Source: Blastocatellia bacterium
GTDB lineage: Bacteria > Acidobacteriota > Blastocatellia > UBA7656
Direction of reading: 5' to 3'
DNA length: 64,000 nucleotides
Assembly: GCA_963765495.1 (NCBI GenBank)
Contig: CAVXWP010000008.1
Span: 736,001 to 800,000 of the forward strand
Below, piece by piece: positions 1,198-50,925 of the stretch. Every line of letters begins with the position of its first letter. Within the stretch, counting starts at the first letter, position 1. The notes under the pieces are model-generated. The model had not been told where the DNA came from and ran no database searches. It worked only from the letters and a program-made list of their open reading frames with translations. A program made the translations under genes and the position numbers.

Positions 1198-1389
1198 ACT
1201 CCGCAAGAGATTGGTACAAATGAGTGTGAATGGAATGCATCTCGGAATAGGCCGGGACGGACGCGGATCGGGCGGGTTTTCGCGGATTGGCTCAAACTAG
1301 GTCAGATCCGCGCTGATCCGCCCGATCCGCGTCCGTCCCGGCCTATTCACATTTTCCTATGCTAAAGTTTGGAAAACTGAATGCCCCTG
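1198..1389. mobile_element. Palindromic MITE/REPIN-like element copy 1 (chimeric: type-A left end, type-B right end)
   Basis: Perfect 31-bp inverted repeat 1245-1275/1318-1348. Left end GCAAGAGATTGGTACAAA (1203-1220) is shared with copy 2. Right end CCTATGCTA...GGAAAACTGAATGCCCCTG is shared with copy 4. Confidence 0.8.
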
Positions 1390-1495
1390 CCCTGACGACC
1401 AGTTTCTTGTTGAAAAACTCACCTCCGATTGATAGATCAAACAAAGCTGGTCTATGATTGCCTTTGCAAATTTCTTTATTGGAGAGGCTATTTTC

Positions 1496-2482
1496 ATGAG
1501 ATATAAGCTGTCGGTCATCGTAATCCTTGCCAGTTCTTTTCTGTTCAACCTCTCGCCTTCAGCGCAATCAAATGGTTCATCAATCGACAAAACATCCGTC
1601 CGCCAGGTGGCGATAACTATTGATGATCTGCCTTTTGTTTCGGCTTCACCTCTGGATGAAGTGACCCTGAGACATTTGACTGCCAAACTCTTGAAGGCCG
1701 CTACATCGAACGGTGTCCCGGTTACAGGGTTTGTGAATGAAAACAAGCTTGAGCGTGAAGGCAAGCTTGATCCATCCCGGGTTGATCTGTTGAGAATGTG
1801 GCTTGATGCGGGACTGGATTTAGGCAACCACACTTTCTCGCACATAGACTTTAACAAGACTCCTCTCGAAGAGTTTGAGCAGGATGTGATCCGTGGAGAG
1901 ACGGTGACGAAACATCTGCTCGCTGATAAAGGGAAACAACTCCGCTATTTTCGCCATCCATTTCTACACACGGGAAAGGACCTTGAGACAAAAAAAGCCT
2001 TCGAAGATTTTCTGGCGGAGCGAGGATACACGATAGCCCCTGTCACTGTAGACACATCAGATTGGATATTCGCGCGAGCCTACGACAAAGCGGCCCTTAA
2101 CGGTGACGCAAAGACGATGAAGAGCATCGGCGATGCATACATCCCATATATGGACCAGAAATTTGCGTATTACGAATCGCAATCGAATAAACTGCTTGGC
2201 AGTGAGATAAGGCAAATACTCCTGATTCATGCCAACACTCTCAATGCCGATCATCTCGGTGACCTTATCGAAATACTCAAGAGACGCGGGTACAGGTTTA
2301 TCAGTCTTGAAGAGGCGTTAAAGGACGACGCCTACAAAACACCCGACACGTTCATAAGTTCCGCAGGCATTTCCTGGCTTCACAGATGGGCCTATGTTAA
2401 AGGACACAGGGGAGAATATTTTAAAGGCGAACCGACTGTACCTGAGTTCGTAATGAAACTGGCCGGAGTCACATCCGAATAG
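1496..2482 (+). CDS. Secreted polysaccharide deacetylase (CE4/NodB)
   Basis: Signal peptide; TIDD, GNHTFSH, FRHPF and ILLIH motifs; start moved to MRYKL after GGAGAGG. Confidence 0.9.
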   Translation: MRYKLSVIVILASSFLFNLSPSAQSNGSSIDKTSVRQVAITIDDLPFVSASPLDEVTLRHLTAKLLKAATSNGVPVTGFVNENKLEREGKLDPSRVDLLRMWLDAGLDLGNHTFSHIDFNKTPLEEFEQDVIRGETVTKHLLADKGKQLRYFRHPFLHTGKDLETKKAFEDFLAERGYTIAPVTVDTSDWIFARAYDKAALNGDAKTMKSIGDAYIPYMDQKFAYYESQSNKLLGSEIRQILLIHANTLNADHLGDLIEILKRRGYRFISLEEALKDDAYKTPDTFISSAGISWLHRWAYVKGHRGEYFKGEPTVPEFVMKLAGVTSE

Positions 2483-2559
2483 ACGCCCCGTTGCGTTCAC
2501 TGGCCACGAGGCATCTATTCGAGACTGTCGAAGTCATCCGGTATTCCGATTAATTCGAG

Positions 2560-3303
2560 TTAATCAATCGGTCGAATGGGGCCTTCCGTGCGACCAAGCG
2601 TCTTTGGCGAATCGGCTTCAGGGTCATCGGGGGGAGAGACTAGGTTGCCCGAGGAGGGTTGCGGCACAGTGGCGTTTGACTGCGCTTCGCTTCCGCCAAT
2701 TCCCTGTTTATAACGAGCCAGTAACTCATCGGCCGCCGCGCGAGCGCGTTGAGTTTCAAGCTCATGATCGGCCGCCGCAATCTCTGCATCCGCAGATGAA
2801 ATCGCCGACCTGTTCAAGCGAGCGCGCATTTCATCGAGGGTAGAGGCCGGGTCCATCGGATCGAATGGCGATTGAATCCCGGCAATGTTCTCCCGCATCG
2901 ATGTGAGGTGAGTTTCAGCGGCAAGCTCTTCGCCCATTCTCCGTCGTTCCTCGCGCAGAGATGCCGCCCGAGCAGCCGAGGAATTGGCTTCGCTGATCTG
3001 CTTTTTCAACAGATCGCGGTGGTTGGAAAGCGTGACCAATTGATTTACTGCATTGGTGGCGGCGGATTCATTACCCTGGTCACGGGCCATCCGCTCTCGT
3101 TCGGCCACACCGATTATCTTCAACTCCACTTCGGCCAGTTCTTTTTCAAACATCTTTATCGAAGCCCGCGTCTGAACCTCCAGCTCATTCAGCCGCGCCA
3201 TCTCTGCCCGCGTGATCGCCCGCACATCCTTATCGGGTCCGCTCGCGCGGTTTATCATATCGTCGAGATAAGAGTTGATCAGTCGTTTAGTGCGTTCCCA
3301 CAT
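2560..3303 (-). CDS. PspA/IM30-like coiled-coil protein
   Basis: N-terminal amphipathic MWERTKRLINSYLDDMINRASGP resembles PspA helix 0/1; long coiled coil; disordered tail. Confidence 0.6.
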   Translation of the reverse strand: MWERTKRLINSYLDDMINRASGPDKDVRAITRAEMARLNELEVQTRASIKMFEKELAEVELKIIGVAERERMARDQGNESAATNAVNQLVTLSNHRDLLKKQISEANSSAARAASLREERRRMGEELAAETHLTSMRENIAGIQSPFDPMDPASTLDEMRARLNRSAISSADAEIAAADHELETQRARAAADELLARYKQGIGGSEAQSNATVPQPSSGNLVSPPDDPEADSPKTLGRTEGPIRPID

Positions 3304-3348
3304 CCCTTTGCCTCTGTCCTCAATTATTATACCCGCGCGCGGAGACGG

Positions 3349-4059
3349 TCAATGTTGAGAATCGCGTTCGGGTGCGTCCTGCTGGATCGGTCTGGGGCCG
3401 GGCGAAGCCTGTTGGATGACCGGCAGGGTCAAAGGCTTTACAAATTTTATGCGAAAGACCGCGCCGGGCTGAACCCGCACTTCGCCGCCCTTTGTCAGTA
3501 AAACACCGCCAAGCAGGCTCCCTAATATCATAGCGCCACCGGCAGCCGCAGGGCCTCCGACCAGTACGGTCCCGATACCCGCTGCGCCTCCTATCGTCCC
3601 GGCGTCTCTAGTATTTTCGACGGTTCTCTTACCGCTGCGCTTGCCCTTTACTTTCCCTTCGTCATCGGCCTTTAGTTTATCGTCGTTATCCCAATCGTCA
3701 ATAGAGGTCAGCACAACCGACACATTCTCCTCACCCCAGGGCATGGCAACTTTCTCAAAAATGATAGAGAGTTTCCCGTTCTTCTGCCCCCGCCCGGCGG
3801 GTGCTACCTCGGTTATTCGACCGTGGAATTCGGTTCCTCGGGGCAAAACCAGTTTATTGTCTACATAGATCGGGTCATTTAGAACTGCCGTTATCGTATC
3901 GCCTACTTCGTTCAGCTTGGAACTGAGTTGTGTTTGGAGAACCAGACGCGCTTTGGTTTCGGGTTCGATTGTGGCTTCGTTGGCTGCCTGGGACCAGGCG
4001 GGCGCAACGCTACTAATTTGAATCGCGCAAAGCATGATTGCGCAAATAACCTTTCTCAT
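3349..4059 (-). CDS. Exported protein with TrbI/VirB10-like beta domain and glycine zipper
   Basis: Signal peptide; LQTQLSSK..VGD, LPRGTEFHGRI; GGAAGIG..GGPAAAGG..LLGGVL..KGGEV..PGA pattern. Confidence 0.6.
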   Translation of the reverse strand: MRKVICAIMLCAIQISSVAPAWSQAANEATIEPETKARLVLQTQLSSKLNEVGDTITAVLNDPIYVDNKLVLPRGTEFHGRITEVAPAGRGQKNGKLSIIFEKVAMPWGEENVSVVLTSIDDWDNDDKLKADDEGKVKGKRSGKRTVENTRDAGTIGGAAGIGTVLVGGPAAAGGAMILGSLLGGVLLTKGGEVRVQPGAVFRIKFVKPLTLPVIQQASPGPRPIQQDAPERDSQH

Positions 4060-4172
4060 ATTTCACCTCCTGAATCAGGCAGCCGAGTGACGCTGGTAGA
4101 TATTAAAACAGGCTTCCCACCCGGTCAAGATGGCGCGACGGCTTAAACAGGATACCGATTCCTGATGAGCTT

Positions 4173-5561
4173 TCAACCTATGGCTTGTTTGATAGTCGAA
4201 GCCAGGCGGTTGGCCTGCTCTTCAATTGTCGTCTGGTCTTCGCCTTCTATCATGACGCGAGCTAGATTCTCTGTCCCCGAATACCGAACGAGCAAGCGCC
4301 CGCGACCTTGCATCTCTTCTTCAAATTGCGAGATTTCATTGCTCACCTTAGGCAAACTCTCGATTGGCGGCTTCGAGCGCACCGGGACATTTATGAGAAC
4401 CTGCGGAAATCGTTTCATCTCTGCCGCAAGGTCGTCAAGCCTGCGCCCGGATTCCACTACCGCGCGCAAGACTTCGATCCCCGTAATCAGCCCATCGCCC
4501 GCGAGCGATATATCAGGGAAAATAATGTGGCCCGACTGCTCTCCCCCGAGTTTCCCTCCTCGCCTCAACAAATCATCCAGTACGTTTCTGTCACCCACCT
4601 GAGCCCTAATCATCTCGATCTCATTTTCCCGCAGAGCGATCTCAAGCCCTATATTGCTCATCACTGTGGCAACAACCAGATTGCCGGAAAGCAGACCGCG
4701 CGATTGCAAATTCCTTGCAAGGATCAGAAGCATCTGATCGCCGTCGATGACTTTTCCGCTCGAATCTATAAAGAGAGCCCTGTCGGCATCTCCATCAAAG
4801 GCGATCCCCATCTGAAGGCCGTTCTCAAGTACGAAGTTTTGAAGTAATTCCAGATGCGTGGAACCGCAACCCTCGTTTATGTTACGCCCATCGGGTGATA
4901 CCGCGATTGCGCTGACCACGGCGCCCAGTCGCTCGAACAGTGGAGGAGCTATCGCGGAAGCCGCCCCGTTGGCGCAATCCAACCCGAGCCGCAACCCGCT
5001 GAGGTCTAGCCCGCGACCTATCTCATCCGCAAGGTAATCCAGATACATTCCGCAATACTCGTTTTGACAATTCTCCAGGTCTTCCTGTGGCGCAAGAGTG
5101 GCAGCATCCGTGATTCCCTGTTTATTGGAAGTATCCAAATGCTCGGCGAGAAATGCTTCGATTTTGCGCTCAATCTGATCTGCCAATTTTTCCCCGGTCG
5201 GAGTAAAGACTTTGATTCCATTGTCGCGGTAAGGATTGTGTGAGGCAGAAATGACTATGCCCGCGTCGAAGCGCTCGCTTCGGGTAATAAAGGCGATACC
5301 GGGCGTGGTGATAATCCCGGCAGATTTCAACTTTGCCCCGGCAGCGAAAATGCCTCGCGCAAGGAGTCGCTCAATTTGAGGCCCCGACTCGCGGGTGTCG
5401 CGCCCAATTATAATTTGGGGCGAGTGCCCGAGGCTTTCAGACAGGATCACGGCTATCGACCGCCCTATCATTTCTACGGTTGCATCGTCGAGCGGGAACT
5501 CGCCCGCCACTCCTCTGATTCCGTCGGTTCCAAACAGTTTTTGCGCCTCGCCTGTCGGCAT
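4173..5561 (-). CDS. glmM: Phosphoglucosamine mutase
   Basis: FGTDGIRG, ISASHNP, FDGDADR, GGEQSGH, VRYSGTE motifs; cdaA-cdaR-glmM synteny. Confidence 0.97.
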   Translation of the reverse strand: MPTGEAQKLFGTDGIRGVAGEFPLDDATVEMIGRSIAVILSESLGHSPQIIIGRDTRESGPQIERLLARGIFAAGAKLKSAGIITTPGIAFITRSERFDAGIVISASHNPYRDNGIKVFTPTGEKLADQIERKIEAFLAEHLDTSNKQGITDAATLAPQEDLENCQNEYCGMYLDYLADEIGRGLDLSGLRLGLDCANGAASAIAPPLFERLGAVVSAIAVSPDGRNINEGCGSTHLELLQNFVLENGLQMGIAFDGDADRALFIDSSGKVIDGDQMLLILARNLQSRGLLSGNLVVATVMSNIGLEIALRENEIEMIRAQVGDRNVLDDLLRRGGKLGGEQSGHIIFPDISLAGDGLITGIEVLRAVVESGRRLDDLAAEMKRFPQVLINVPVRSKPPIESLPKVSNEISQFEEEMQGRGRLLVRYSGTENLARVMIEGEDQTTIEEQANRLASTIKQAIG

Positions 5562-5650
5562 TTATGCATCTCTCCTTATAGGGGATTTCAATGACCAGCA
5601 CACCGGGCCCGGGAACTGGTCGGTATTTGAGTTTCAGCCTGAAGGCAAAG

Positions 5651-6613
5651 TCATCGCACCCTGATATATTCAGGGCTTATCGAACGAACCTGTACCTTGT
5701 CCTGAAACCTCGATAGAGAAACTCTTGGGGAGATTTCGTGCCATCTGTCCGAGCTTCCAGGGTAATCAACAGTGGCAATGATATCGTCGCTTGTGAGCCG
5801 GTCAACCCCGGATTGTGCGCCGTATACCTTCACATTTATGAATCTTGGAACAATCCTGGCCGAAGACGGGCCGCCATTTAGAGTGACAAGAACATTTTCT
5901 ATAGTGCGTTCCTTTTGCGCCTCGCGGATGTCTACATTCAACTGCACTTTGCGATGTATCTCATCGCTGATATTCACGTTTGGAGAGCCTATATCGATTG
6001 CAACATTCTGGCTGAAACCCTGTGTCCTTCCTTCGAGGCTGACCGTCTCGGTCGTTACCATAATGATGTCCTTCACCTGACTTTGCGCCCCAAAAATGCG
6101 TACGCTCGGAGGTTGAATAGACCAGGTATATTCATAGCCGGGTGGCAATTCCCCTGCAAAACGAGGCACAACCGCAACCTCGCGTTCAACCACGTTTTCG
6201 ACAGTGATGCGTATATTGCGCGGGTCTACGCTTGCCTCTTTTATGCTGGCCGGTAGCCGTGTGCGCTCGAGTCTTAAGGGGATGACACGGACACCCGGTT
6301 CAATTCCGGAAAGATCTGCCAGTACATTCAAATCACTGGCGCGAACCGAATCGAGCACATCGCGAGGCCCTCGCATATAAATTCTGGCGTATGGATTGTC
6401 GGCATTGGTGACTGTCATTACGCGAGGATCGGGCACATTGCGGAATTCGATAGGCACATTCGGAACGGTGATCTGACCGACCGGGCGCGAGGCTACAGAC
6501 AACCACAGGACGGCAGTAATGAAAAGCGCCAGTACCTTCAAGCCGGTATTCTCTAGAACATAATCACGCGCATATTCAGACAGCTGATTCCGATATTGGC
6601 GCATCTTATCCAT
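5651..6613 (-). CDS. cdaR: YbbR-domain diadenylate cyclase regulator
   Basis: N-terminal TM (NTGLKVLALFITAVLWLSV) followed by repeated YbbR-like beta domains; lies between cdaA and glmM. Confidence 0.9.
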   Translation of the reverse strand: MDKMRQYRNQLSEYARDYVLENTGLKVLALFITAVLWLSVASRPVGQITVPNVPIEFRNVPDPRVMTVTNADNPYARIYMRGPRDVLDSVRASDLNVLADLSGIEPGVRVIPLRLERTRLPASIKEASVDPRNIRITVENVVEREVAVVPRFAGELPPGYEYTWSIQPPSVRIFGAQSQVKDIIMVTTETVSLEGRTQGFSQNVAIDIGSPNVNISDEIHRKVQLNVDIREAQKERTIENVLVTLNGGPSSARIVPRFINVKVYGAQSGVDRLTSDDIIATVDYPGSSDRWHEISPRVSLSRFQDKVQVRSISPEYIRVR

Positions 6614-6623
6614 CTTAAATCGG

Positions 6624-7505
6624 CTACTTCACATAGGTTTCGGTTATCCGTTCGCTAGAAGCATCTGAGGCAGGTTTTCCCACCCGGCGGGGGGGTCGCT
6701 TCGGCCTCACTACTTCACGGAATGAGCGGATGGGATCGATTGCATCCCTGATAAGCTCACGCAGGCGCGAACTGTTCAAATATCGCGTGATCTCGCCCTT
6801 CTCGACAAAGGAGATCACGCCGGTTTCTTCGCTCACAACCACTGCCACAGCGTCCGTATCTTCGGTGACACCGATTGCCGCCCTGTGACGGGTTCCTAGC
6901 TCTTTTGAAAGTTTCGGATTCAGCGTTAGAGGAAGGAAGCAACTCGCAGCCGCCAACTTATAATCACGGACAATAACCGCACCGTCGTGCAGGGGCGTGT
7001 GCGTGTCGAAAATGGTCACGAGCAGATCGTATGACAGGCTGGCCCCGAGCGCCACGCCCGTATCGATGTAGTTTTGCAGCCCTACATTTCTCTCTAAAAC
7101 AATCAGCGCCCCGATTCTGCGCGAGGAGAGGGTCATCGCGGCAAGCACTATCTCGTCATACGCCTCGTGACCCAGTTTTGAGCGACCGAATCTTAACGGG
7201 CTTCTCAAATTAGAGCCCACTCTCATCAAAGCGGAGCGAATTTCAGGGGCGAAAATGACCAGTATCGCAAATCCGAAATAGAGCAGCATATTTCGCATTA
7301 CGAACTGTAAAGTCTCCAGCCCGAAATAGACCGACATCTGATACAGGAGACCTACACCGAGCAGACCCATCGCCATTTGCACGGCGCGAGTCCCTCTGAC
7401 AAGCTTCAAAAGGCCATAAATGATTGCCCACACCACCAGGAAATCAACAAGGTCGGTCGGGCGAAGCTGCTCGAAGAATCTAAGCAATTCGGTCGATCGA
7501 GTCAT
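6624..7505 (-). CDS. cdaA: Membrane diadenylate cyclase (c-di-AMP synthase)
   Basis: Three N-terminal TM segments; DAC motifs PLHDGA and GTRHRAA. Confidence 0.96.
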   Translation of the reverse strand: MTRSTELLRFFEQLRPTDLVDFLVVWAIIYGLLKLVRGTRAVQMAMGLLGVGLLYQMSVYFGLETLQFVMRNMLLYFGFAILVIFAPEIRSALMRVGSNLRSPLRFGRSKLGHEAYDEIVLAAMTLSSRRIGALIVLERNVGLQNYIDTGVALGASLSYDLLVTIFDTHTPLHDGAVIVRDYKLAAASCFLPLTLNPKLSKELGTRHRAAIGVTEDTDAVAVVVSEETGVISFVEKGEITRYLNSSRLRELIRDAIDPIRSFREVVRPKRPPRRVGKPASDASSERITETYVK

Positions 7506-7735
7506 CTGGTAGTCGCTGCTCCCTGCTTTCCTCTTTACACAACCGGGTGTCGGTCAAGTCCGCCCTACTGGCTGCTTGTACCGTCATAGATGCGACATTG
7601 GTTGAAAAGTGTTGCCGCGCGAAGATACTGGTTGGCGATTTATCTTGAGAACACCGAGTCGTAAAAAACATCTCTCATCTCAATCGTATCTTAACCAGAA
7701 GCCTCCAACTTTATGGTAGCCCTCAGGTCCGGCAG

Positions 7736-7748
7736 AATCAAGTAGTTA
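7736..7748 (+). promoter_or_regulatory. IHF-consensus site
   Basis: AATCAAGTAGTTA is an exact match to WATCAANNNNTTR, in an AT-rich intergenic region upstream of a sigma54-type promoter. Confidence 0.4.
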
Positions 7749-8024
7749 GCTTCGAAAGGCTCTCGTTTGAGACATTTTATGTTATTTGGACTTACAAAAT
7801 CTGTTTGGCAAGTGTAGCGCGATGATATTCAATACCCTGCTGACCGCTATAAACCCGCGCCGTAGCCAGCGGTTTGTCAAGCCACATCCATTTAAAGACT
7901 TGCAGATATGACGGATTATTGTAAGAATACACTCTAGCCTCATAGCTGTACGCTTTCGCCTCACAAGAAAAGCCCCTCGTTATACAGGCTGCCCGTTCGG
8001 CTGAGTAAAAAGACCATTAACGTA

Positions 8025-8040
8025 TGGTATGCGAATTGCT
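8025..8040 (+). promoter_or_regulatory. Putative sigma54 (-24/-12) promoter
   Basis: TGGTATGCGAATTGCT: GG-N10-GC with TTGCT, 47 nt upstream of the small ORF at 8088. Confidence 0.6.
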
Positions 8041-8087
8041 CCTCAAACAGGAGAAGAGCAAAAACAAATGAAAGAGGTAACAAGCTA

Positions 8088-8258
8088 ATGACGATAAGAT
8101 TAGTTAAACGAAATCAGGAAACAAAAGCCAAGAAAGAGAATATTGAGACTCCATCTCCAAACCGATTGTTGGAATCCACTCAGGCGTGGGTTGAGGAATA
8201 TAGAGCTAAGAAAGCCAGAAACAATGCAGCTCTACTGGCGATTGTAAGAAGCAATTAA
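8088..8258 (+). CDS. Small hypothetical protein (56 aa), below the ORF-track cutoff
   Basis: MTIRLVKRNQETKAKKENIETPSPNRLLESTQAWVEEYRAKKARNNAALLAIVRSN; GAGGT SD upstream; sigma54-type promoter; hairpin downstream. Confidence 0.65.
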   Translation: MTIRLVKRNQETKAKKENIETPSPNRLLESTQAWVEEYRAKKARNNAALLAIVRSN

Positions 8259-8551
8259 GTAACCCGAAGCCCGGTCTATCGCTCAATATCCATCGGCACG
8301 ACCGGCGATTCAGGGAAAGTCCTTCAAGCATCTGGCTACCAGTCGCACCCTATATTTAGAATTAATCTCGCGTTTGCAATCAAACTATTTGAGGCGGATT
8401 CTGCCCAAATCGTATACCGGAGCTTTGACATTTGTAATACGTTTCCCTGAGTATGGATTCACAAAAGGGTTCAATGTGACTGTTCAGGTTGCAACAAGAC
8501 CATCAGATTGGAAAGAGCGATCCAACACGCAGTAGGCTTCAGGGGTGGGCT

Positions 8552-9784: not shown

Positions 9785-9894
9785 GGCCTCACCTCTATAC
9801 CCTGGTATTTTGTTTCGCACAACCTTAAGAATTCATTGCAGGAGCAGCCCAAAAGGCCGCACCTTCCTGTAAGAGGGTGCCGGTATCTCTCTAT

Positions 9895-10113
9895 TTATTC
9901 TTTGACATCCTCTTCCTTCATCGTAGGCTGATATTGCACCAGCCCGCGCCGGACCTCTTCGAGGGCCACCCGCGTAGGCTTTTTGGCCAGTGATTCCAGG
10001 CGGGGCCTGGCACCTTTTTGTATCTGCTTGCTCCGCTTCGCGGCAAGCAATACCAGCCTGTACTTGCTGTCAACTTCGCTTGTCCAGCCGGGTTCATTTT
10101 TCTCATCAGGCAT
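9895..10113 (-). CDS. rpoZ: RNA polymerase omega subunit
   Basis: DSKYRLVLLAAKRSKQI...KPTRVALEEV; sits between gmk and coaBC; start moved to MPDEK. Confidence 0.93.
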   Translation of the reverse strand: MPDEKNEPGWTSEVDSKYRLVLLAAKRSKQIQKGARPRLESLAKKPTRVALEEVRRGLVQYQPTMKEEDVKE

Positions 10114-10789: not shown

Positions 10790-10799
10790 ACTGTCGCCT

Positions 10800-14489: not shown

Positions 14490-14891
14490 ATGAGCAAAGA
14501 GAATGGGAAATTTAGTATGGACAAGCTGCTTCGTGCTCTTGCTGATCGGACACGCCTACGCTTACTCAATCTATTAGGGGAGGACGAGGTATGTGTCTGT
14601 TTCTTCGTTGAGATACTTGGGGAGAGCCAGCCAAAAATATCGCGCCACCTGGCCTATTTGCGGCGAGCAGGAATCGTTGCAAGTCGACGTGAAGGCAAAT
14701 GGATTCACTATCGCATCGTAAATCCGCCGAATCCGCACGCTGTGAGAATTCTCAGCGAGGTTCGGGCTTGTTTGGCTGAAGATAAAGGTATGCAGCGCGA
14801 GCGCGAGCGTCTGGTGAGGGTTTTTTGTGCGCCAGATCCTCCCTTCCAACTACAAGGAGCACCCCGACCTGCGAATTATCTATCTGCCTAA
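14490..14891 (+). CDS. arsR: ArsR/SmtB family repressor
   Basis: ALADRTRLRLL, EVCVC metal box, SQPKISRHLAYLR, RREGKWIHY. Confidence 0.93.
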   Translation: MSKENGKFSMDKLLRALADRTRLRLLNLLGEDEVCVCFFVEILGESQPKISRHLAYLRRAGIVASRREGKWIHYRIVNPPNPHAVRILSEVRACLAEDKGMQRERERLVRVFCAPDPPFQLQGAPRPANYLSA

Positions 14892-17641: not shown

Positions 17642-17750
17642 TGAATCGTGATGCGTGATGCGTGATGCGTGAGAGGTAAAGGGGGCATCTCCCAATTGAA
17701 TTGTTAATGATCTCAAAATCACGGATCACGATTCACGCATCACGATTCAC
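17642..17750. repeat. Inverted pair of heptamer arrays (TGATGCG)n / (ATCACGM)n
   Basis: Arrays at 17642-17672 and 17718-17750; the second lies 3 nt from the stop at 17754. Confidence 0.9.
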
Positions 17751-32400: not shown

Positions 32401-32587
32401 TACTTCCGCAAGAGATTGGTAGAAATGAAATTGAATGAAAGGAAGTTTGGAATAGGCCGCGGATGCGGCGGATTCACGCGGATATGACAATTTATGATCT
32501 AATCCGCGAAGGTCCGCCACATCCGCGCCCGTCCCGGCCTATTTTTGATTACCCTGCTTTGGAGCTTCTTTTGTACCAATCTCTTGC
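32401..32587. mobile_element. Palindromic MITE/REPIN-like element copy 2 (type-A ends)
   Basis: Outer IR GCAAGAGATTGGTAGAAA (32408-32425) / TTTGTACCAATCTCTTGC (32570-32587); inner AATAGGCC...GGCCTATT palindrome with a deletion of about 9 nt in the left arm. Confidence 0.8.
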
Positions 32588-32646
32588 ATTTCGATCTAGA
32601 AAGTGAGACATGCTTTCTTCCCAACCATTCATATTCGGAGCGTTAG

Positions 32647-35453: not shown

Positions 35454-35531
<78 letters not shown>

Positions 35532-39652: not shown

Positions 39653-39690
39653 AAGGCAGGACCGTTCGGTATTCCAACCTCTAAAACTGA

Positions 39691-39742
39691 GAGATTGAAA
39701 TAGGCCAGGATGGACGCGGATCGGGCGGATTTACGCGGATCT
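39691..39742. repeat. Half copy (left arm only) of the palindromic element, copy 3
   Basis: GAAATAGGCCAGGATGGACGCGGATCGGGCGGATTTACGCGGATCT matches the left arm of copies 1 and 4. Confidence 0.8.
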
Positions 39743-39807
39743 AACCTTAGCTGGTTTAATTCCTAACCCATAAAGGAGATGAGGGGCAAACCGAAACGAT
39801 CTCCGGT

Positions 39808-39838
39808 TCATCCCTCATCCCTCATCCCTCATCCCTCA
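39808..39838. repeat. Heptamer array (TCATCCC)4 containing the peroxiredoxin stop codon
   Basis: On the minus strand (TGAGGGA)4TGA begins with the stop codon; single inverted unit at 39778-39786. Confidence 0.88.
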
Positions 39839-41560: not shown

Positions 41561-41589
41561 TTGACAGAACCAATTTGCCAGTATAATAT
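41561..41589 (+). promoter_or_regulatory. Sigma70-type promoter of the lrp operon
   Basis: TTGACA at 41561 followed by TATAAT (15-nt spacer) or TAATAT (17-nt spacer). Confidence 0.55.
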
Positions 41590-41626
41590 AAGTCTTGTTT
41601 GAATTTTCCTGTTATATCTCACCATT

Positions 41627-42118: not shown

Positions 42119-42157
42119 CCGTTGGGTCAGTCCACAGCCTGAAAAAGGAGCAAATTG

Positions 42158-43417: not shown

Positions 43418-44331
43418 AGCCAGCAAAATTCATTATCGCCGATGTGTTCACCGAAAAGCTTTTCGGTGGTAATCAGCTAGCCGTTTTCACCGACGGTCGG
43501 GGTATTGATGACGCCACGATGCAAGACATCGCGCGCGAGATGAACTATTCGGAGACCACCTTTATCCTTCCAGCCGAAAGCGGAGGCGATTACCGCGTAA
43601 GGATTTTCACGCCTATGCGCGAGCTTCCCTTCGCAGGCCATCCGCTTGTGGGCTCGGCTCATGTGCTTGTATCCGAGCGCATGAAAGAGTGGACCATACC
43701 GGGTACTTCGATCACGCTCGAAACCGGCGTTGGAAACATCCTGGCCGAAGTGAAGATTGAAGATGATCGAGCGGGTCACACGACGATGACTCAACCTCTG
43801 CCGACTGTTAAGGGGCAATTTACCGACACGGCCAGGCTCGCTCGGGCGCTGACGCTTGCGCCTTCCGACATTGAAGGAACCGGCTTCCCGGTCGAAGCTA
43901 TTTATAACGGAATTACGGTCTTAATCGTGCCTGTCGCAACTCTTCAAGCCGTCGAAACAATAAAGCTCGAATCAAGTGCGCTCGGAGGGATCAGCGAAGA
44001 AATGGGAGCCGATACCGTTCTGGTCTTCGCCTCCGAAACGCTTCGGGAATCGAGCACAGTTCATTGCCGGGTTTTCGCACCCGCCGCAGGGGTCGCGGAA
44101 GACGCGGCCACAGGCTCCGCAAACGGGCCGTTAGGGTTTTATCTCGTCCGACATGGAATCGTCGAGCCAAAGCCTGTGACCCAAATCATCAGCGAACAGG
44201 GATTCGAGATGAAACGGCCAAGCATCCTGCACATCGAAGTTAAGATGGACCCCAACTCAAAAGATATTACAGGCATCCGTGTTGGCGGCGGCGTTGTCAT
44301 CTCCGGTCGGGGCGAAATTCTGCTTTCATAG
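43414..44331 (+). CDS. PhzF-family isomerase
   Basis: DVFT..FGGNQLAV, SETTF, ELPFAGHP, EDAATGSA, QGFEMKRPS; ATGA overlap. Confidence 0.93.
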   Translation: MKPAKFIIADVFTEKLFGGNQLAVFTDGRGIDDATMQDIAREMNYSETTFILPAESGGDYRVRIFTPMRELPFAGHPLVGSAHVLVSERMKEWTIPGTSITLETGVGNILAEVKIEDDRAGHTTMTQPLPTVKGQFTDTARLARALTLAPSDIEGTGFPVEAIYNGITVLIVPVATLQAVETIKLESSALGGISEEMGADTVLVFASETLRESSTVHCRVFAPAAGVAEDAATGSANGPLGFYLVRHGIVEPKPVTQIISEQGFEMKRPSILHIEVKMDPNSKDITGIRVGGGVVISGRGEILLS

Positions 44332-44381
44332 CCTCTTTGCTTTTTGTCATCCGGTCATTACCATATCAAATGGAGGTAGAG

Positions 44382-44891
44382 ATGACTGCAAGCGATATTG
44401 TGACGCTCTACGATTACGGGTACTGGGCCAATCGCAAGCTGATGGCTACGATCAGCCGCCTGAGCGAGGAAGAGTTCACAGGCAAGCCCCTCGGGGCAGA
44501 CAAATCGATTCGGACTCTGCTTGTGCACATATTAAGCGCCGAGTGGGGCTGGTTTGCCCGGTGCGGCGGTCCTGAACGCGACCAACGTCTGCTGCCCGAA
44601 GACTTCCCTTCCCTGGAATCAATTCAAAAGCAATGGAGCAAGATTGAAACCAGCCTGCGCAGCTTTCTTTCAGAGCTTGAGGACAGCGACCTCAACCGCG
44701 TTGTAACATACGCGCTTGATGAAAAGGAGAACCTCGAGATGCCGCTTGGCGAGATATTACAACACGCGGCAAATCATGCGGTGCATCACAGGGGGCAAAT
44801 AAGTTTGATGCTCAGAACTCTCGGTTATAATCCGGAGGGAATAGATATACTTCTGTACTATGGCGAAAAACGTGGCACCCCGGTATGGTAA
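44382..44891 (+). CDS. DinB family protein
   Basis: YGYWAN, SIRTLLVH, HAANHAVHHRGQ. Confidence 0.92.
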   Translation: MTASDIVTLYDYGYWANRKLMATISRLSEEEFTGKPLGADKSIRTLLVHILSAEWGWFARCGGPERDQRLLPEDFPSLESIQKQWSKIETSLRSFLSELEDSDLNRVVTYALDEKENLEMPLGEILQHAANHAVHHRGQISLMLRTLGYNPEGIDILLYYGEKRGTPVW

Positions 44892-44945
44892 TGTGTTTCT
44901 GGAGTGGGATTATTGCGGCGAAATTTTTTGATTGGAGTAAAGAAG

Positions 44946-45827
44946 ATGGCTGACAACTTGATTCGATTGAAGACGGGACTGGCTGAGATGCTGAAAGGCG
45001 GAGTCATAATGGATGTGACCGATGCCGATCAATCACGCATAGCCGAAGAAGCCGGGGCCGTGGCAGTAATGGCGCTTGAACGGGTTCCCGCCGATATTCG
45101 CGCAGAAGGCGGTGTAGCTCGGATGGCATCTCCAAGAAAGATTCGAGAGATCATGAAGGCGGTCTCCATCCCCGTGATGGCAAAGGTTCGAATCGGTCAT
45201 TTCGTCGAGGCGCAGGTGCTTGAAGCGATGGGCGTTGATTTCATAGATGAGAGCGAAGTGCTGACCCCTGCCGACGAAGAACATCACGTGGACAAGCATA
45301 AGTTCAAGGTTCCATTCGTCTGCGGCGCTCGAAACCTCGGAGAGGCTTTGCGCCGGATAGGTGAAGGCGCGGCGATGATTCGCACAAAAGGCGAGGCAGG
45401 ATCGGGAAACATTGTCGAAGCGGTGCGACATCTTCGGCGAATCACTCACGAAATCAAGCGCCTTACTATACTTGGCGATGAGGAGTTGATGGCAGAGGCC
45501 AAGAATCTCGGAGCCCCTTACGAGATCGTGAGAATGGTGGCCCGCGAGGGGCGATTGCCGGTCCCGAATTTCGCAGCGGGCGGAGTGGCCACACCAGCCG
45601 ATGCTGCTCTCTGCATGCAGCTTGGCGCGGAATCGGTCTTCGTAGGCTCGGGGATATTCAAGTCATCGGACCCGGCGGTGCGCGCCCGCGCAATCGTCAA
45701 AGCGACCACGCATTATAACGATCCGAAAGCGGTCCTCGAAGCAAGCGAGGAGCTTGGCGAGGCGATGCGCGGGCTCGATGTTTCAAAGCTTGAAGACAGC
45801 GAGCTATTGCAAACTCGCGGATGGTGA
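44946..45827 (+). CDS. pdxS: PLP synthase lyase subunit
   Basis: [44 protein letters not shown] end. Confidence 0.98.
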
Positions 45828-45830
45828 ACC

Positions 45831-45984
45831 GATTTTAGATTTTGGATTTTAGATTTTGGATTTTAGATTTTGGATTGTTAGTAATGGATTAAAGACTTTG
45901 ATTTGATACCCAATCCAGAATCTAAATCAGCGAAGTGCATGTCGCGCCACGAAAATCCAAAATCTAAAATCTAAAATCCAAAAT
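45831..45984. repeat. Inverted pair of heptamer arrays (GATTTTR)6 / (AAAATCY)4
   Basis: Arrays at 45831-45876 and 45952-45984 span the pdxS-pdxT gap; the second abuts the pdxT ATG. Confidence 0.93.
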
Positions 45985-46554
45985 ATGAAGATTGGTGTAG
46001 TCGCAATACAGGGAGATTTTGCAGCGCATGGGCGGATGCTTTCGCGGCTAGGTGTAGACGTAGCGGAGGTGCGCCGCGCAAGCGATCTCGATGGTGTAGA
46101 AGGCTTGATTTTACCGGGGGGAGAAAGCTCTACGATGCTGAAGTTCCTCGCGGCCGAAGATTTGGAACAGCCTATAAAGGAACTGGCCGGGGCCGGAAAG
46201 CCCGTCTTTGGAACGTGCGCGGGGGCGATCCTGCTTGCCCGCGAGGCGATCAACCCGTCACAGCATTCGATGGACTTGATCGACATCACCGTGGCTCGTA
46301 ATGCCTATGGCAGACAGGTAGACAGCTTTATCGGCGAAGTGGAAACCGTGATAAAGGGCGGCCCGCTCGAAGCCGTATTCATTCGCGCGCCGAGGATCGA
46401 GCGAGTCGGCCCGGAGGTCGAAGTGCTGGCAAGAAATGAAGGCGAGCCGGTTTTCGTCAGACAGGCCAATATACTGGCAGCAACCTTTCATCCTGAACTC
46501 TCGGATGACGAGCGAGCACACAGGTTGTTTGTCGAACTGGCACAAAGAGTCTGA
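45985..46554 (+). CDS. pdxT: PLP synthase glutaminase subunit
   Basis: GVVAIQG, PGGESST, FGTCAG, RNAYGRQ, FIRAP, FHPEL. Confidence 0.97.
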   Translation: MKIGVVAIQGDFAAHGRMLSRLGVDVAEVRRASDLDGVEGLILPGGESSTMLKFLAAEDLEQPIKELAGAGKPVFGTCAGAILLAREAINPSQHSMDLIDITVARNAYGRQVDSFIGEVETVIKGGPLEAVFIRAPRIERVGPEVEVLARNEGEPVFVRQANILAATFHPELSDDERAHRLFVELAQRV

Positions 46555-46578
46555 TCGTCTTATTCTCAGAAGAAAAGT

Positions 46579-47037
46579 GTGGAAATACGTGATTACAGCG
46601 CCAGTGATTTTGAAACACTCTACGAGATCGACCACGAGGCTTTTTCAGAGGATATCGCATATTCTCACCTTGAGTTGCAATACTATCTGCGGTCGAGAAA
46701 ATGCCGCACGCTGATCGCCGAAGACGATAAAGAGATAATCGGCTTTGTTATCGCCTGCTCCGAACCTCGCAAACTTGGACATATCATAACTATTGATGTC
46801 ACACCTCATCGCCAGCGGCAGCACATAGGCAGCCGTTTGCTTTCAGAAATAGAATCCTGGCTATGGGAAAAAGGAGCGCAGGCGATCTATCTGGAAACGC
46901 CCGTCGATGATCTTGGAGCGCGAGGTTTTTACGACAGGCACGGGTATTTTATCCTCGATCGTATCGAAGGCTATTACACCGATACGCTCGATGCCTTCGT
47001 CATGATGAAGACTACAAAGAGGTCGAATCCCGCGTAA
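46579..47037 (+). CDS. GNAT acetyltransferase (RimI-like)
   Basis: HIITIDV.P..QRQHIG, YLET, FYDRHGY, GYY..DAFVM. Confidence 0.85.
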   Translation: MEIRDYSASDFETLYEIDHEAFSEDIAYSHLELQYYLRSRKCRTLIAEDDKEIIGFVIACSEPRKLGHIITIDVTPHRQRQHIGSRLLSEIESWLWEKGAQAIYLETPVDDLGARGFYDRHGYFILDRIEGYYTDTLDAFVMMKTTKRSNPA

Positions 47038-47105
47038 AGTGGCGCAGGTTCGATGCGTTGATCACCTGGATACGCCCGAACGCTTCAGCTATCCTTCATG
47101 TCACA

Positions 47106-47798
47106 ATGTATCAGGCAAATTCGAATGAACATTTGACGCCTACTCAGACCATAGAGTCCGCTCATCCCGATATTATTGCATTCACTCGCCAGCATGCCGG
47201 AGATTCTCAAACGAGCATCGAGCAGGCGGTGAGGCTCTATTACGCGGTGAGGGATGGCGTTCGATACGATCCTTATAGAATCGCCCTCACAATTCCGGGG
47301 ATGAAGGCGAGCGCGACACTCGCTCATAAGCATGGATGGTGCGTTTCAAAGGCCGTACTGCTCGCAGCGTGTTGCAGGTCAACCGGCATCCCGGCCAGGC
47401 TCGGATTCGCCGATGTCAGGAATCATCTCTCCACCGAACGGCTGAGACGACGAATGGCAACCGATATATTTTTCTGGCACGGGTATACAGAGATGTTTCT
47501 GGGCGAGAAATGGGTAAAGGCGACCCCGGCATTCAACATCGAATTATGCGAAAAATTCCGCCTGCTGCCGTTGGAATTTGACGGTCGCAGCGACTCGCTT
47601 TACCATCCATTTGATGCGGACGGGCATCGGCACATGGAGTATGTAAATCATCGCGGCGTATATTCAGATTTGCCGCTCGATGAAATCATCGCGACCTTTG
47701 AACAGGAATACAAATTCGCCCGATCAAGGTCCGAACTTGATGAAGCAAGCTTTGATGCCGATGTCGTAAGAGAAACGGAAAGCAGGGTGGGTCTGTGA
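47106..47798 (+). CDS. Transglutaminase-like protein
   Basis: VRDGVRYDPY, GWCVSKAVLLAA, VRNHL, WHGY, KWVKATPAF. Confidence 0.88.
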   Translation: MYQANSNEHLTPTQTIESAHPDIIAFTRQHAGDSQTSIEQAVRLYYAVRDGVRYDPYRIALTIPGMKASATLAHKHGWCVSKAVLLAACCRSTGIPARLGFADVRNHLSTERLRRRMATDIFFWHGYTEMFLGEKWVKATPAFNIELCEKFRLLPLEFDGRSDSLYHPFDADGHRHMEYVNHRGVYSDLPLDEIIATFEQEYKFARSRSELDEASFDADVVRETESRVGL

Positions 47799-47861
47799 TT
47801 GCAGGTGTCAGTGATTAGCGCAGTACAGCAGAAAACCATATATCAAAGGAGCCCTTCGTCC

Positions 47862-48785
47862 ATGAATCATTTGATTGATCGTCGCAAATTCTTGAAGATT
47901 TCTGCCCAGACTACAACGGGTCTTGCGCTTGCCGGACTGGCCGGCGAGGCGTTTACGTCTGGAAAAGCCAAACCGTTGTTTCAGATTTCACTGGCTGAAT
48001 GGTCATTCCACAAGGCGTTGTTTTCAAAGCAGATGGATAACCTCGACTTTGCAAAAGTGGCCAAACAGGACTACGGCATTGATGCGGTCGAGTACGTCAA
48101 TCAGTTCTTTCCAGACAAGGCCACCGATAAAACTTATCTGGCCGAACTGAAAAAACGCGCTAAAGACAACGGAGTCGAGAGCCGCCTGATAATGATTGAC
48201 GGCGAGGGCGCGCTCGGCGACCCCGATGAGATGAAACGCACCCGCGCTGTCGAGAACCATTACAAATGGGTAGATGCGGCCAAATACCTCGGGTGCTTCT
48301 GCATTCGCGTCAACGCTCAAAGCTCCGGTCCTTATGAGGAGCAGATAAAGCTTGCGGCCGACGGGCTCAGAAGGCTCACCGAGTTCGGCGCAAAGCAAAA
48401 GATCAGCGTTATCGTAGAGAACCACGGAGGGTTGTCATCGAATGGAGAATGGCTCGCGGCTGTGATGAAGAGGGTAAATCATCCGCGATGTGGAACCCTG
48501 CCCGACTTCGGCAATTTTGAACTTGGCGACGGAAAAGAGTACGACCGATACAAAGGGGTCAAAGAGATGATGCCCTTTGCAAAAGCCGTCAGCGCGAAAT
48601 CGTTCGATTTTGACGAACAGGGAAACGAAACACTTATAGACTATCCGCGAATGATGAAAATAGTTATGGACGCGGGCTTTCACAGCTACGTAGGGATCGA
48701 ATACGAAGGAGACAGAATGAGCGAACCGGATGGGGTTCGGGCCACAAAGAGGCTGCTTGAACGCATACGCAACGAGATGGCCTGA
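47862..48785 (+). CDS. Tat-exported sugar phosphate isomerase/epimerase (TIM barrel)
   Basis: DRRKFLK Tat motif; ENHGG, LPDFGNF, SAKS, GIEYEG. Confidence 0.9.
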
Positions 48786-48838
48786 ATCCGAGATTGCACA
48801 ACATCCGGCTAAATCGGAATCAAATGCTGGAGGAAAGA

Positions 48839-49303
48839 ATGATGAAGTCCATACGAATAGTCTCTGTCATGCTACTGGTTCAGATCGCAGTTTTTGCCCA
48901 GAGCGCGGAGGACGTGATCAAGACAAAGACTGATAAGTTCACCAAAGCGATTGTTTCGAAGGACCTCTCGATTCTCGATGATGTTTTCGAGAAGGATGCA
49001 GATAATATCTATTACGATATTAACGAGGGCCCCCTTCGCGGATTTGACAGACTGAAGCGCGTTTGGAGCGCCGCCACGAGTAACTACACCATCTCTCGAT
49101 TCGAATTCAATGATGATATGAAGGTGATAGTTGACGGTGATCACGCGGTGCAAACCGGAACATGGATTCAGACCCAGGTAAACAAGTCGGGCCAGAGCCG
49201 TGACATAAAGGGCCGGGCCACTGTGCTATGGCGCAAACGCGATGGAGAGTGGCGCGTGTGGCATTATCACGCCTCGATCACACCCGCTCGAATGCAAAGA
49301 TAA
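48839..49303 (+). CDS. Exported SnoaL/NTF2-like protein
   Basis: Signal peptide; GRATVLWRKRDGEWRVWHYHAS C-terminus. Confidence 0.85.
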   Translation: MMKSIRIVSVMLLVQIAVFAQSAEDVIKTKTDKFTKAIVSKDLSILDDVFEKDADNIYYDINEGPLRGFDRLKRVWSAATSNYTISRFEFNDDMKVIVDGDHAVQTGTWIQTQVNKSGQSRDIKGRATVLWRKRDGEWRVWHYHASITPARMQR

Positions 49304-49338
49304 GCGGGCATCCAAACATCGAAGGGAGATAATCGGGT

Positions 49339-50025
49339 ATGACGGAAGCAGAGGTATTAAAAGAGCTTGAGGCTCTTGGCACTGAGCAAAACAGAAAAGT
49401 ATACAGGCGGCATGGAGTGGAAGACGATATTTTTGGAGTCAGTTACGCCAACCTCGGAAAGCTCAAAAAGAAGATCAAGACCGATCACGATCTCGCGATC
49501 AGGCTCTGGGCGAGCGCAAATCACGATGCCCGCATATTTGCCACGATGATTGCGGACCCTTCTCTGCTCGACAACCGGGTGTTGGATAGCTGGGTAAAGG
49601 ACCTTGGTAATTACGTGCTGACGGATGCCTTCGCTAATCTGGCCGGTCAATCTCCGCTCGCGCAAAAGAAAATGGAGAAATGGACCACATCCCCAAAGGA
49701 ATGGATTGGGAGCGCAGGATGGGTGTTGCTTTCGACGCTCGCGCGCAACGAAAGCGATTTGCCGGACTCTTATTTTGAGCCTTACCTGGAAACGATTGAG
49801 CACGACATACATTCCAGCAAAAACAGGGTGAAGCACACCATGAACGCCGCGCTGATCGCTATAGGCTCCCGCAACACAGGGCTTGAGAAGAAGGCCCTTG
49901 CTACGGCCGGAAGAATCGGAAAGATTGAAATTGATCACGGAGATACCGGCTGTAAGACGCCGGACGTGGCAGAATACATCAGGAAAATTAAGGAACGAAA
50001 AAGCCGTAGCCGGAAGGCAGGCTAA
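49339..50025 (+). CDS. AlkD-like DNA alkylation repair protein
   Basis: FGVSYANLGKL.KKIK.DH.LA..LW; HEAT-like helices; DHGDTGCKTP. Confidence 0.85.
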   Translation: MTEAEVLKELEALGTEQNRKVYRRHGVEDDIFGVSYANLGKLKKKIKTDHDLAIRLWASANHDARIFATMIADPSLLDNRVLDSWVKDLGNYVLTDAFANLAGQSPLAQKKMEKWTTSPKEWIGSAGWVLLSTLARNESDLPDSYFEPYLETIEHDIHSSKNRVKHTMNAALIAIGSRNTGLEKKALATAGRIGKIEIDHGDTGCKTPDVAEYIRKIKERKSRSRKAG

Positions 50026-50040
50026 GAGGAAAACATTTTG

Positions 50041-50583
50041 ATGAACAAGAATACCGAAGTCGCAACTCTGGGCGGGGGATGTTTCTGGTGCCTTGAGGCT
50101 GTATTTCAAGATTTGCGTGGCGTTGAAGAGGTCGTATCCGGGTATGCAGGAGGCTCGGTTCCCAACCCGTCTTATCAGGAGGTATGCGGAGGAAGAACCG
50201 GGCATGCCGAGGTCGTGCAGGTTACTTTCGACCCGGAGGTCATCTCGTACAGGGAAGTTCTCGAAGCCTTTTTCGCCATCCACGATCCGACAACCTTGAA
50301 TCGCCAGGGGGCGGATGTCGGACCGCAATACAGGTCCGTGATCTTTTATCACTCGCCCGAGCAGAAGGCAGTCGCCGAACAGTTAATTCGAGAACTGAGC
50401 GAAGAAGGAATCTGGGGAAGCCCTATAGTGACAGAGATAACTGCCGCCCCGGCCTTTTATGCAGCCGAGCAGTATCATCAGCGATACTTCGAAAATAACC
50501 CGAATCAGCCGTACTGTCAGGCTGTAGTCGCTCCGAAGGTAGCAAAGTTTCGCAAACACCATCTGGAGAAACTCAAGAGATAA
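50041..50583 (+). CDS. msrA: Peptide methionine sulfoxide reductase A
   Basis: GGGCFWC, GHAE, HDPT.LNRQG.D.G.QYRS, AEQYHQRY, YC. Confidence 0.97.
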   Translation: MNKNTEVATLGGGCFWCLEAVFQDLRGVEEVVSGYAGGSVPNPSYQEVCGGRTGHAEVVQVTFDPEVISYREVLEAFFAIHDPTTLNRQGADVGPQYRSVIFYHSPEQKAVAEQLIRELSEEGIWGSPIVTEITAAPAFYAAEQYHQRYFENNPNQPYCQAVVAPKVAKFRKHHLEKLKR

Positions 50584-50702
50584 GCCTCTTGACAACATCT
50601 ATTTGAGATTCGAGCCTTGAAATCTCAGATCAGTTGAGCAGACCAGACTACAAGAGGCCGCAAAGACGCGAGGAGGCAACAAGATTCTGCATCTTTGCGG
50701 CC

Positions 50703-50925
50703 CAGGGCCATTCAGTTTTTGAATTGCGAGCAACATGCGTCAGACGGTTTGGCAAGTTATATTGAATGCAAGGCGAATTGAAATAGGCCGGGACGGACGC
50801 GGATCGGGCGGATCTACGCGGATCTGACAATATATGATTTAATCCGCGAAAATCCGCCGCATCCGCGTCCGTCCCGGCCTATTCCCCTTTTCCTATGCTA
50901 CATTTTGGAAAACTGAATGGCCCTG
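50703..50925. mobile_element. 223-bp MITE (copy 4, type-B ends) with 17-bp TIRs and 10-bp TSD
   Basis: TIRs CAGGGCCATTCAGTTTT (50703-50719) / AAAACTGAATGGCCCTG (50909-50925); direct repeat CTTTGCGGCC at 50693-50702 and 50926-50935; inner palindrome 50782-50883. Confidence 0.88.

Follow-up and report, generated by a model that had tools for sequence, protein, structure and literature searches.

A tandem-unit hairpin shared by several miniature transposon frames in a Blastocatellia genome, and its likeness to GxxExxY gene cassettes

The window analyzed here is a 64,000-nt stretch (C8:736001-800000; contig CAVXWP010000008.1 of assembly GCA_963765495.1) from the genome of a Blastocatellia bacterium, which comprises 7.30 Mb in 17 contigs with ca. 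54% G+C; positions given without a contig refer to the window. Four intergenic sites beside protein genes carry the same palindromic core, devoid of any open reading frame (ORF), as had been noticed in a first-pass annotation and is borne out by direct reading and by repeat grouping (Table 1). The core consists of a AATAGGCC end, three GCGGAT units at 9-10-nt spacing and a loop of 18 nt, beyond which the arm is repeated in mirror form, and it is held between different pairs of transposon-like ends, which we designate frames. The reading that we favor, with a probability of roughly 0.6, is that the core is a gene-less GxxExxY hairpin cassette that became the interior of several non-autonomous frames, whose copies exchange sequence through the common palindrome.

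Table 1. Components of the four core copies in the window.
Feature	Position	Strand	Description
Copy 1, left frame A1	1192..1244		A terminal repeat and alpha inner flank
Copy 1, core	1245..1348		104-nt hairpin, three GCGGAT units per arm, loop flop
Copy 1, right frame Bs	1349..1390		beta inner flank and B terminal repeat ...CTGAATGCCCCTG
Copy 2, left frame A1	32405..32449		without the outermost CTAAATCA (outer 8 nt)
Copy 2, core	32450..32543		94-95 nt; base of left arm shortened; loop flip by eye
Copy 2, right frame A2	32544..32599		end ...GCATTTCGATCTAG
Copy 3	39657..39743	+	degenerate Bs-like flank, then a single core arm (39697-39743); no partner arm
(CATCCCT)4 heptamer array	39809..39836		separated from the copy 3 arm by ca. 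65 nt of other sequence
Copy 4, left target duplication	50693..50702		10 bp, CTTTGCGGCC
Copy 4, left frame Bl	50703..50780		B terminal repeat CAGGGCCATTCAGTTTT, ca. 40 nt, then alpha inner flank
Copy 4, core	50781..50884		104-nt hairpin, loop flip
Copy 4, right frame Bs	50885..50925		41-nt flank
Copy 4, right target duplication	50926..50935		10 bp, CTTTGCGGCC

The ends of the copies are also as first described, with A on both sides of copy 2, B on both sides of copy 4, and A to the left and B to the right of copy 1, which is an A1/Bs chimera. Nevertheless, the A repeat spans ca. 30 nt (CTAAATC...GGTACAAA), not the 18 nt originally assigned to it, and copy 3, taken for a half copy, does have one arm only but possesses in addition a Bs-like flank and a trailing heptamer array, a layout that recurs at C1:421828. 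Copies 1-3 do start near stop codons, from 0 to at most 6 nt away (ORF ends at 1194, 32399 and 39652), and the TAA stop of the host gene (1192-1194) falls within the CTAAATC end of copy 1; copy 4 starts 120 nt past a stop codon (ORF end at 50583). A repeat search delimited hairpin arms of 43 nt with 91% complementarity in copy 1 (1245-1287/1306-1348), and of 53 nt with 83% complementarity in copy 4 (50771-50823/50842-50894). The core of copy 1 folds as RNA with -94 kcal/mol, and that of copy 4 as DNA with -47.9 kcal/mol (z = -9.8), a value equaled by 0 of 200 shuffles. Copy 4 with its frame (50703-50925) is a complete 223-bp type B miniature inverted-repeat transposable element (MITE), with unequal flanks of 78 nt at the left and 41 nt at the right. 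GCGGAT-N3-4-GCGGAT doublets appear 11 times in the window, versus 0.07 expected and with 0 of 100 shuffles matching, and 10 of them lie within the four copies; the remaining doublet, at 14722-14736 within long ORFs, is either a chance occurrence or a fragment.

The first-pass annotation had proposed looking for copies that enclose an ORF, and one such copy exists at C8:160849-161392, where an inverted pair of solo arms 544 bp apart encloses an ORF of 130 aa. These arms, 49 nt long and 98% complementary, are the same as those of the gene-less cores. The deduced product matches PF13366 (PDDEXK_3, E = 2.5e-39) and TIGR04256 (GxxExxY, E = 4.7e-38), comes from the only PF13366 gene of the genome, and contains residues E28, D67, E77, K79 and Q91, which are invariant in a 32-protein alignment. 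A sequence search among solved structures with the GxxExxY protein retrieved no credible relative, the best match (E = 0.0098) being a repeat protein. A survey that includes PDDEXK_3 lists the function of the family as unknown and describes multiple transfers (PMC3424549).

The association of such genes with tandem-unit arms extends well beyond this genome. PF13366 genes are present in 91 of 121 genomes of the class, and inverted arms made of tandem units of 8-10 nt (CACAGAG, CGCAGAG, CACGAAG, CACAGAT, CAGGAT or GCGGAT) border 25 of the 30 best PF13366 loci of the class. Such arms were also present at 12 of 16 PF13366 loci from other lineages, in five genomes (a Caldilineaceae, Candidatus Ribeiella, a Verrucomicrobia bacterium, a Methanoperedenaceae archaeon, which has GCGGAT arms, and a Gemmataceae). 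Additionally, a strict GCGGAT-hairpin pattern retrieved loci from many phyla, at least 115 in all, when fewer than one is estimated by chance; 80 titles of these records include Acidobacteriota, Verrucomicrobiota, Planctomycetota, Chloroflexota, Bacteroidota, Clostridia and Methanoperedens. An AATAG... end is common to the GCGGAT copies of an archaeon, a Caldilineaceae and a Pyrinomonadaceae. The type of arm unit tracks the protein clade, with 8 label changes on a 32-protein tree versus 15.6 after shuffling and 0 of 200 shuffles as low, which suggests cognate recognition of the arms by the GxxExxY protein; as linked inheritance alone can produce the same association, it is no proof of recognition. 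Inverted arrays of heptamers likewise bracket all four genes of the genome for the four-helix-bundle family PF05635. To judge from these sequence comparisons, the core would be a gene-less member of a cross-phylum class of hairpin cassettes, rather than a transposon relic. Our search of the accessible literature on GxxExxY, PDDEXK_3, PF13366, TIGR04256, TIGR02436 and PF05635 found no description of elements of this kind.

The core is abundant in the genome, as four copies in 64 kb had led the first-pass annotation to expect. Blastn identified 211 loci, or ca. 2.9 per 100 kb, the density in the window being about twice the average. A hidden Markov model (HMM) of the arm gave 335 hits with E ≤ 1, from which we kept the 293 with E < 0.01 that started at the outer end of the arm; they correspond to 85 full palindromes, with core lengths of 104 nt (n = 45), 105 nt (n = 18), 85 nt (n = 8) and other, rarer ones, and to 123 solo arms. 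Flank types were defined as the communities resulting from clustering the 90 nt outside each arm. These were the short B flank Bs (54 arms), the long B flank Bl (43 arms, in two subfamilies), the A flanks A1 and A2 (21 arms each), D, which adjoins (GCAGTAG)n arrays (19 arms), the C flanks C2 (16 arms) and C1 (4 arms), and small groups of a few arms. The end types do not pair at random: 28 of the 85 full palindromes are Bl/Bs, 8 are A1/A2, and 4 are C1/C2, plus one with a variant of C1; one flank was unclassified in 21, and 8 are mixed pairs. The latter are three Bs/C2 copies and one each of D/C2, Bl/C2, A1/C2, A2/Bs and A1/Bs, the last being copy 1, so that the promiscuous C2 flank takes part in about 6-7 of the 8. 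There are thus at least four frames (A, B, C and the heptamer-armed D), not two.

A consensus reading assigned the ca. 22 nt beside the core to two archetypes, alpha (A1, Bl and C1) and beta (Bs and C2, with a looser fit of A2 and D), a grouping in which profile HMMs bear out only Bl, A1, C1, Bs and C2. Because the alpha and beta flanks accompany the core, the shared module is asymmetric and measures ca. 150 nt.

Frame B is a true, ISAs1-like MITE. Its ends (CAGGGCCATTCAGTT..., starting with CAGGGCC) are inverted at both extremities of 34 pairs, which are non-coding and span 123-266 bp, with a mode of 221-223 bp; 28 full Bl/Bs copies are dispersed over many contigs. Target duplications of 8-10 bp flank 24 of the 34 pairs, versus 2% for shuffled partners, and one B copy is nested in the end of another (C1:186401). 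About ten short B forms of 123-149 bp retain five different stubs of the hairpin base, which indicates independent deletions of an unstable palindrome. CAGGG ends with duplications of 8-10 bp are typical of the ISAs1 family, and the genome harbors an ISAs1-family insertion sequence (IS) in five identical copies of 1305 bp (C13:114720, C15:181283, C16:6313, C2:5430 and C9:48160). Its ends (CAGGGCTGTTGCAAAGTAG) begin with CAGGGC, 2 of the 5 copies have duplications of 9-10 bp, and its open frame of 419 codons suggests that it is probably active.

Six of the eight full type A copies have CTAAATC...GATTTAG ends of 30 nt, with no longer duplication. The CTAA of copy 1 belongs to the TTCTAA with which the host gene ends, and the gene ends in the same way in 3 of 3 relatives, which fits insertion of type A at TA; this dinucleotide is probably its target. 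Two mobilizing systems, as the first-pass annotation envisaged, are therefore plausible, given that B bears the marks of DDE transposition and that A differs from it in its ends and lacks a long duplication, but the number of frames exceeds the two then recognized. Neither A nor C ends were found at the 10 regions examined out of 18 matches to IS630-family genes (NF033545). Type C ends are ATACCAAATCT..., and type D is a single arm, with ca. 20 nt resembling the gene-proximal sequence of the gene-bearing copy, inside a heptamer-armed hairpin.

Some frame ends also accompany other hairpins. A second, B-like end (CAGGGCCATTTAATTTTCAGG) precedes hairpins of CGCAAAG-type units in at least 8 cases, e.g., at C7:249657, C13:66869, C14:17600 and C16:260497, indicating that ISAs1-like frames carry more than one type of hairpin. 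The A end stands before a hairpin of CAGGAT/CAAGAT units, in place of the GCGGAT core, at C16:289545, C2:470769, C3:251941, C4:221245 and C6:152938. The right side of the D/C2 chimera (C1:973751-973854) runs past the C end into the tail of a D arm, and it looks like a C element that was inserted at TA in a D arm, followed by a deletion between arms.

Sequence variation among the copies points to exchange between them. Arm-base variants I and II are evenly spread over the end types (I/II: Bl 16/23, Bs 26/21, A1 8/7, A2 9/11, C2 8/6 and D 7/11) and the loop of Bl/Bs copies, oriented from alpha to beta, occurs both ways (flip in 10, flop in 9 and ambiguous in 2), indicating that cores have been exchanged between copies. 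The loop is flop in the 7 of 7 A1/A2 copies of 104-106 nt, and flip in copy 2, which has a shorter core. Of the cells in the 45 cores that measure exactly 104 nt, 86.8% were paired within the element, versus 85.6% +/- 0.8 with the right arms of other elements. Pairing is hence about the same within and between elements, showing no element-specific compensation. The AATAGGCC end and the GCGGAT units are near-invariant, with variable spacers and a phase of 9-10 nt. As far as sequence patterns can tell, all this fits frequent recombination or conversion inside the common palindrome and argues against selection for the own stem of each copy.

The idea that the chimeras arose by recombination is retained in part: 8 of the 85 palindromes have mixed ends, but there is no support for a simple reciprocal exchange. 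No reciprocal chimera (Bl/A2 or A1/Bl) was found among the 85 full palindromes, and none of the 77 orphan B ends was the target-duplication partner of the B end of copy 1. The orphan ends gave two duplication matches with one mismatch, versus 0.31 expected, neither of which involves copy 1, and we treated both as chance. Formation of chimeras by adjacent local insertions was also considered; the clustering test neither supports nor excludes it, because units are no more clustered than in a Poisson distribution (4 gaps of <1 kb versus 5.4 expected).

Copy 1 lies where two segments meet that are not adjacent in relatives, although such breaks are common at this evolutionary distance. The gene to its left was found in only 2 of 30 family genomes, and synteny was read instead from loci in metagenomes and from individual genome regions. 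Three metagenomic relatives of the left gene (58-67% identity) are followed by a gene whose product, to judge from its sequence, is gamma-glutamyltransferase-like; in the host, the orthologue of that second gene (75% identity) maps to a different contig (C6:186596-188380), and the sequence preceding it (C6:186,240-186,596) contains neither a core arm nor an end of type A, B or C. As for the gene to the right, its orthologue sits between the same two genes in 3 of 4 family relatives. In the host these two lie next to each other as well (C8:188598-192649), separated by another small gene, at C8:191054-191628, whose product we take to resemble a Uma2-type endonuclease; the interval (C8:191,036-191,660) is likewise free of core arms and of A, B and C ends. 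No unitig bridges positions 1191-1390 in the single soil metagenome run, with 22% of the sampled words, whose unitigs are short (32-427 nt) and have no bearing on the correctness of the assembly. The first-pass suggestion that copy 1 could mark a rearrangement junction therefore holds as to the break in synteny, which is observed, but there is no reciprocal product; lacking a reciprocal chimera class and a duplication partner, copy 1 marks the breakpoint and is not shown to have caused it.

The favored reading unites these data as follows. The original cassette would have been a small gene for a protein of PD-(D/E)XK fold between inverted arms, each with three phased GCGGAT units behind AATAGGCC. 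The hairpin, with its asymmetric alpha and beta inner flanks, would have become the interior of frames A, B and C, and single arms would have come to lie in D. Movement would be due to the frames, as shown for B and as we infer for A and C. Since every frame holds the same palindrome of ca. 100 nt, copies could exchange sequence by recombination or gene conversion; judging from the patterns above, this would reshuffle arm variants, flip the loop and trim the hairpin, and would occasionally unite a left end and a right end that come from different frames, as in copy 1. The earlier proposal of one cargo shared by different ends is upheld in that the same module occurs in different end pairs, and modified in that the cargo would be a gene-less hairpin cassette, not an ordinary transposon interior.

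Several observations weigh against this reading. With regard to the cassette class, no inverted repeat was detected at E ≤ 0.01 for 5 of the 30 and 4 of the 16 PF13366 loci, and one GCGGAT-armed gene (L173) sits in another protein clade. With regard to the flanks, those of 106 of the 293 arms are unclassified singletons, 15 of the 85 full palindromes have neither flank classified, and the alpha and beta profile HMMs, which are too narrow, miss 20 of 21 A2 arms and 19 of 19 D arms. As to mobility, 10 of the 34 B pairs lack a duplication, the resident ISAs1 end agrees with the B end in only 8 of the first 10 bases, no autonomous element with exact B, A or C ends was found in the genome, and the targeting of TA by type A is drawn from CTA...TAG in 6 of 8 copies and from one comparison of gene ends in relatives. 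There are, moreover, core-less A hairpins of 83 bp (C8:638646 and C7:338138) and a B copy from which exactly the core is absent (C8:728261), and these may be ancestral frames still devoid of cargo. Nor does the favored reading account for the presence of one cargo in three frames.

These core-less copies bring up the strongest alternative, namely that the cassette invades the loops or centers of other palindromes, perhaps through the GxxExxY nuclease acting in trans, so that the ends are its targets and nested palindromes accumulate. Nesting is indeed common, with A elements lodged in the loops of heptamer or CAGGAT hairpins (C1:623658 and C4:133958) and 19 type D single arms within (GCAGTAG)n hairpins, and frames with other cargo exist, given the A end on CAGGAT hairpins (n = 5) and the B-like end on CGCAAAG hairpins. 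Invasion would also account for the position of the gene-bearing copy outside any frame and for the correspondence between arm type and protein clade. Nevertheless, the core is found together with the alpha and beta flanks in all three of frames A, B and C, and the shared unit is therefore larger than the hairpin that would be inserted; the five different arm stubs in short B forms fit deletion better than empty targets; the boundaries of the core show no duplication or target signature; and B copies with intact duplications hold the core internally. We consequently regard invasion as rather unlikely, yet as the first competitor of cassettes carried inside frames.

A still less probable possibility is that the hairpin is maintained for a function of its own, as a 3′ end, a terminator, an RNase III site or a set of phased binding sites, and that its spread with MITEs is secondary. 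The proximity of copies 1-3 to stop codons would suit this, as would the near-invariant AATAGGCC end and three hexamers amid variable spacers at a phase of 9-10 nt, and there is a precedent in the ORF-bearing stems of 23S rRNA intervening sequences, where RNase III cleaves at repeated heptamers (PMC4990558). A stem under selection is, however, hard to reconcile with pairing no better within than between elements, with the frequent trimming of the hairpin (85-, 95- and ca. 141-nt forms), with the failure to find the element in the 24 same-family genomes searched or with the lack of any Rfam family at the four window copies. Finally, that copy 1 is an assembly chimera, in which an A-type and a B-type copy collapsed through the shared core, can be practically dismissed: its halves do come from different frames and its flanking genes are not neighbors in relatives, but seven more mixed-end copies exist at unrelated loci, the genome is in only 17 contigs, with copy 1 located 737 kb into a contig of 944 kb, and the stop-codon context of the left gene is intact.

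A search of 24 genomes of the same family, all from other genera, yielded no full B element, and core-like hairpins were present in 5 of the 16 genomes searched from other families. With B so restricted and the hairpin so broadly distributed, the frames seem to have expanded within this lineage around a type of hairpin that is old and widespread. In one genome of the same class (G034), short GCGGAT hairpins alternate with a direct repeat of ca. 110 nt (loci L004 and L009), forming arrays with a spacing of ca. 110 nt on several contigs.

Among known systems, type B resembles ISAs1-derived MITEs in its size (221-223 bp), lack of coding capacity, CAGGG ends, duplications of 8-10 bp and dozens of copies, along with a resident IS with CAGGGC and duplications of similar length. 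It differs from them in that its interior is a long tandem-unit hairpin common to unrelated frames, and in that no IS of the genome has the same full terminal repeat. With GxxExxY cassettes the element of the window shares the inverted arms of three ca. 10-nt units, the combination of one gene-bearing copy and many gene-less ones, and the cross-phylum occurrence; what sets it apart is that a gene-less hairpin stands here within transposon frames that have their own ends and duplications, with chimeras and a flipping loop.

In REP/REPIN-RAYT systems, too, intergenic palindromes are abundant and border one or a few protein genes. In contrast to their unit, an imperfect palindrome of 20-40 nt that is paired as an inverted doublet, the 43-nt arm in our case is composed of three direct units and is not a palindrome, the whole element is one long hairpin, and the associated gene codes for a protein of PD-(D/E)XK fold. 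No GCGGAT doublet was found within 1.5 kb of either of the two Y1_Tnp (PF01797) genes, and this, with the non-palindromic arms, speaks against a REP/REPIN-RAYT identity. E. coli BIMEs are mosaic repeats of short non-coding modules, and Tn3-derived TIMEs are reportedly mosaic as well. The likeness to them lies in short non-coding modules occurring in varied orders and pairings; here, unlike in them, different transposon ends surround one hairpin cassette, and a sequence relation is not to be expected.

The 23S rRNA intervening sequences of Coxiella burnetii and Leptospira contain a small ORF (S23p/four-helix-bundle) in a long stem of tandem heptamers that is cut by RNase III (PMC4990558). A small ORF between tandem-unit arms is a common trait, and the four PF05635 genes of the host are each bracketed by inverted heptamer arrays. 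However, the window copies are intergenic beside protein genes and have no ORF, the window contains no rRNA, and the product of the cassette gene is of PD-(D/E)XK fold instead of a four-helix bundle. The convergent inverted arrays of GGGAATC heptamers from Xanthomonas, mostly intergenic and able to form stem-loops (PMC4692102), are similar as inverted arrays of short tandem units, but these are of 7 nt versus 9-10 nt, and the portion of that report at hand links no ORF or transposon frame to them (PMC4692102).

The new part is the composite architecture, i.e., MITEs of a known kind with a hairpin-cassette remnant that we have not found in print. If the reading of a gene-less cassette inside several frames is true, one non-coding module would be common to transposon frames of different transposition chemistry, when MITE families are usually defined inversely, by shared ends and varying interiors. 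An abundant 'orphan' palindrome would also be tied to a gene, and the GxxExxY protein would have a testable substrate in hairpins or cruciforms with phased GCGGAT units. As a substrate for recombination, the palindrome would bear on rearrangements driven by dispersed palindromes in large soil genomes. More speculatively, and in our opinion doubtful, the GCGGAT hairpin may be the cis site of a mobile cassette of bacteria and archaea, whose nuclease would read the phased hexamers. The cassette would then parasitize three kinds of MITEs as well as heptamer hairpins, with DDE transposases carrying it in trans, and the palindrome would serve as a mobile site of recombination, fusing unrelated transposon ends and marking points of rearrangement.

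The window contains two further features of note. Its sole match to Rfam is a tRNA gene (35455-35528). There are also hairpins with arms of tandem heptamers (TGATGCG; GATTTTA/GATTTTG) at 17642-17749, 45831-45989 and 57545-57647, which belong to the same class of arrays as those bracketing the four PF05635 genes.

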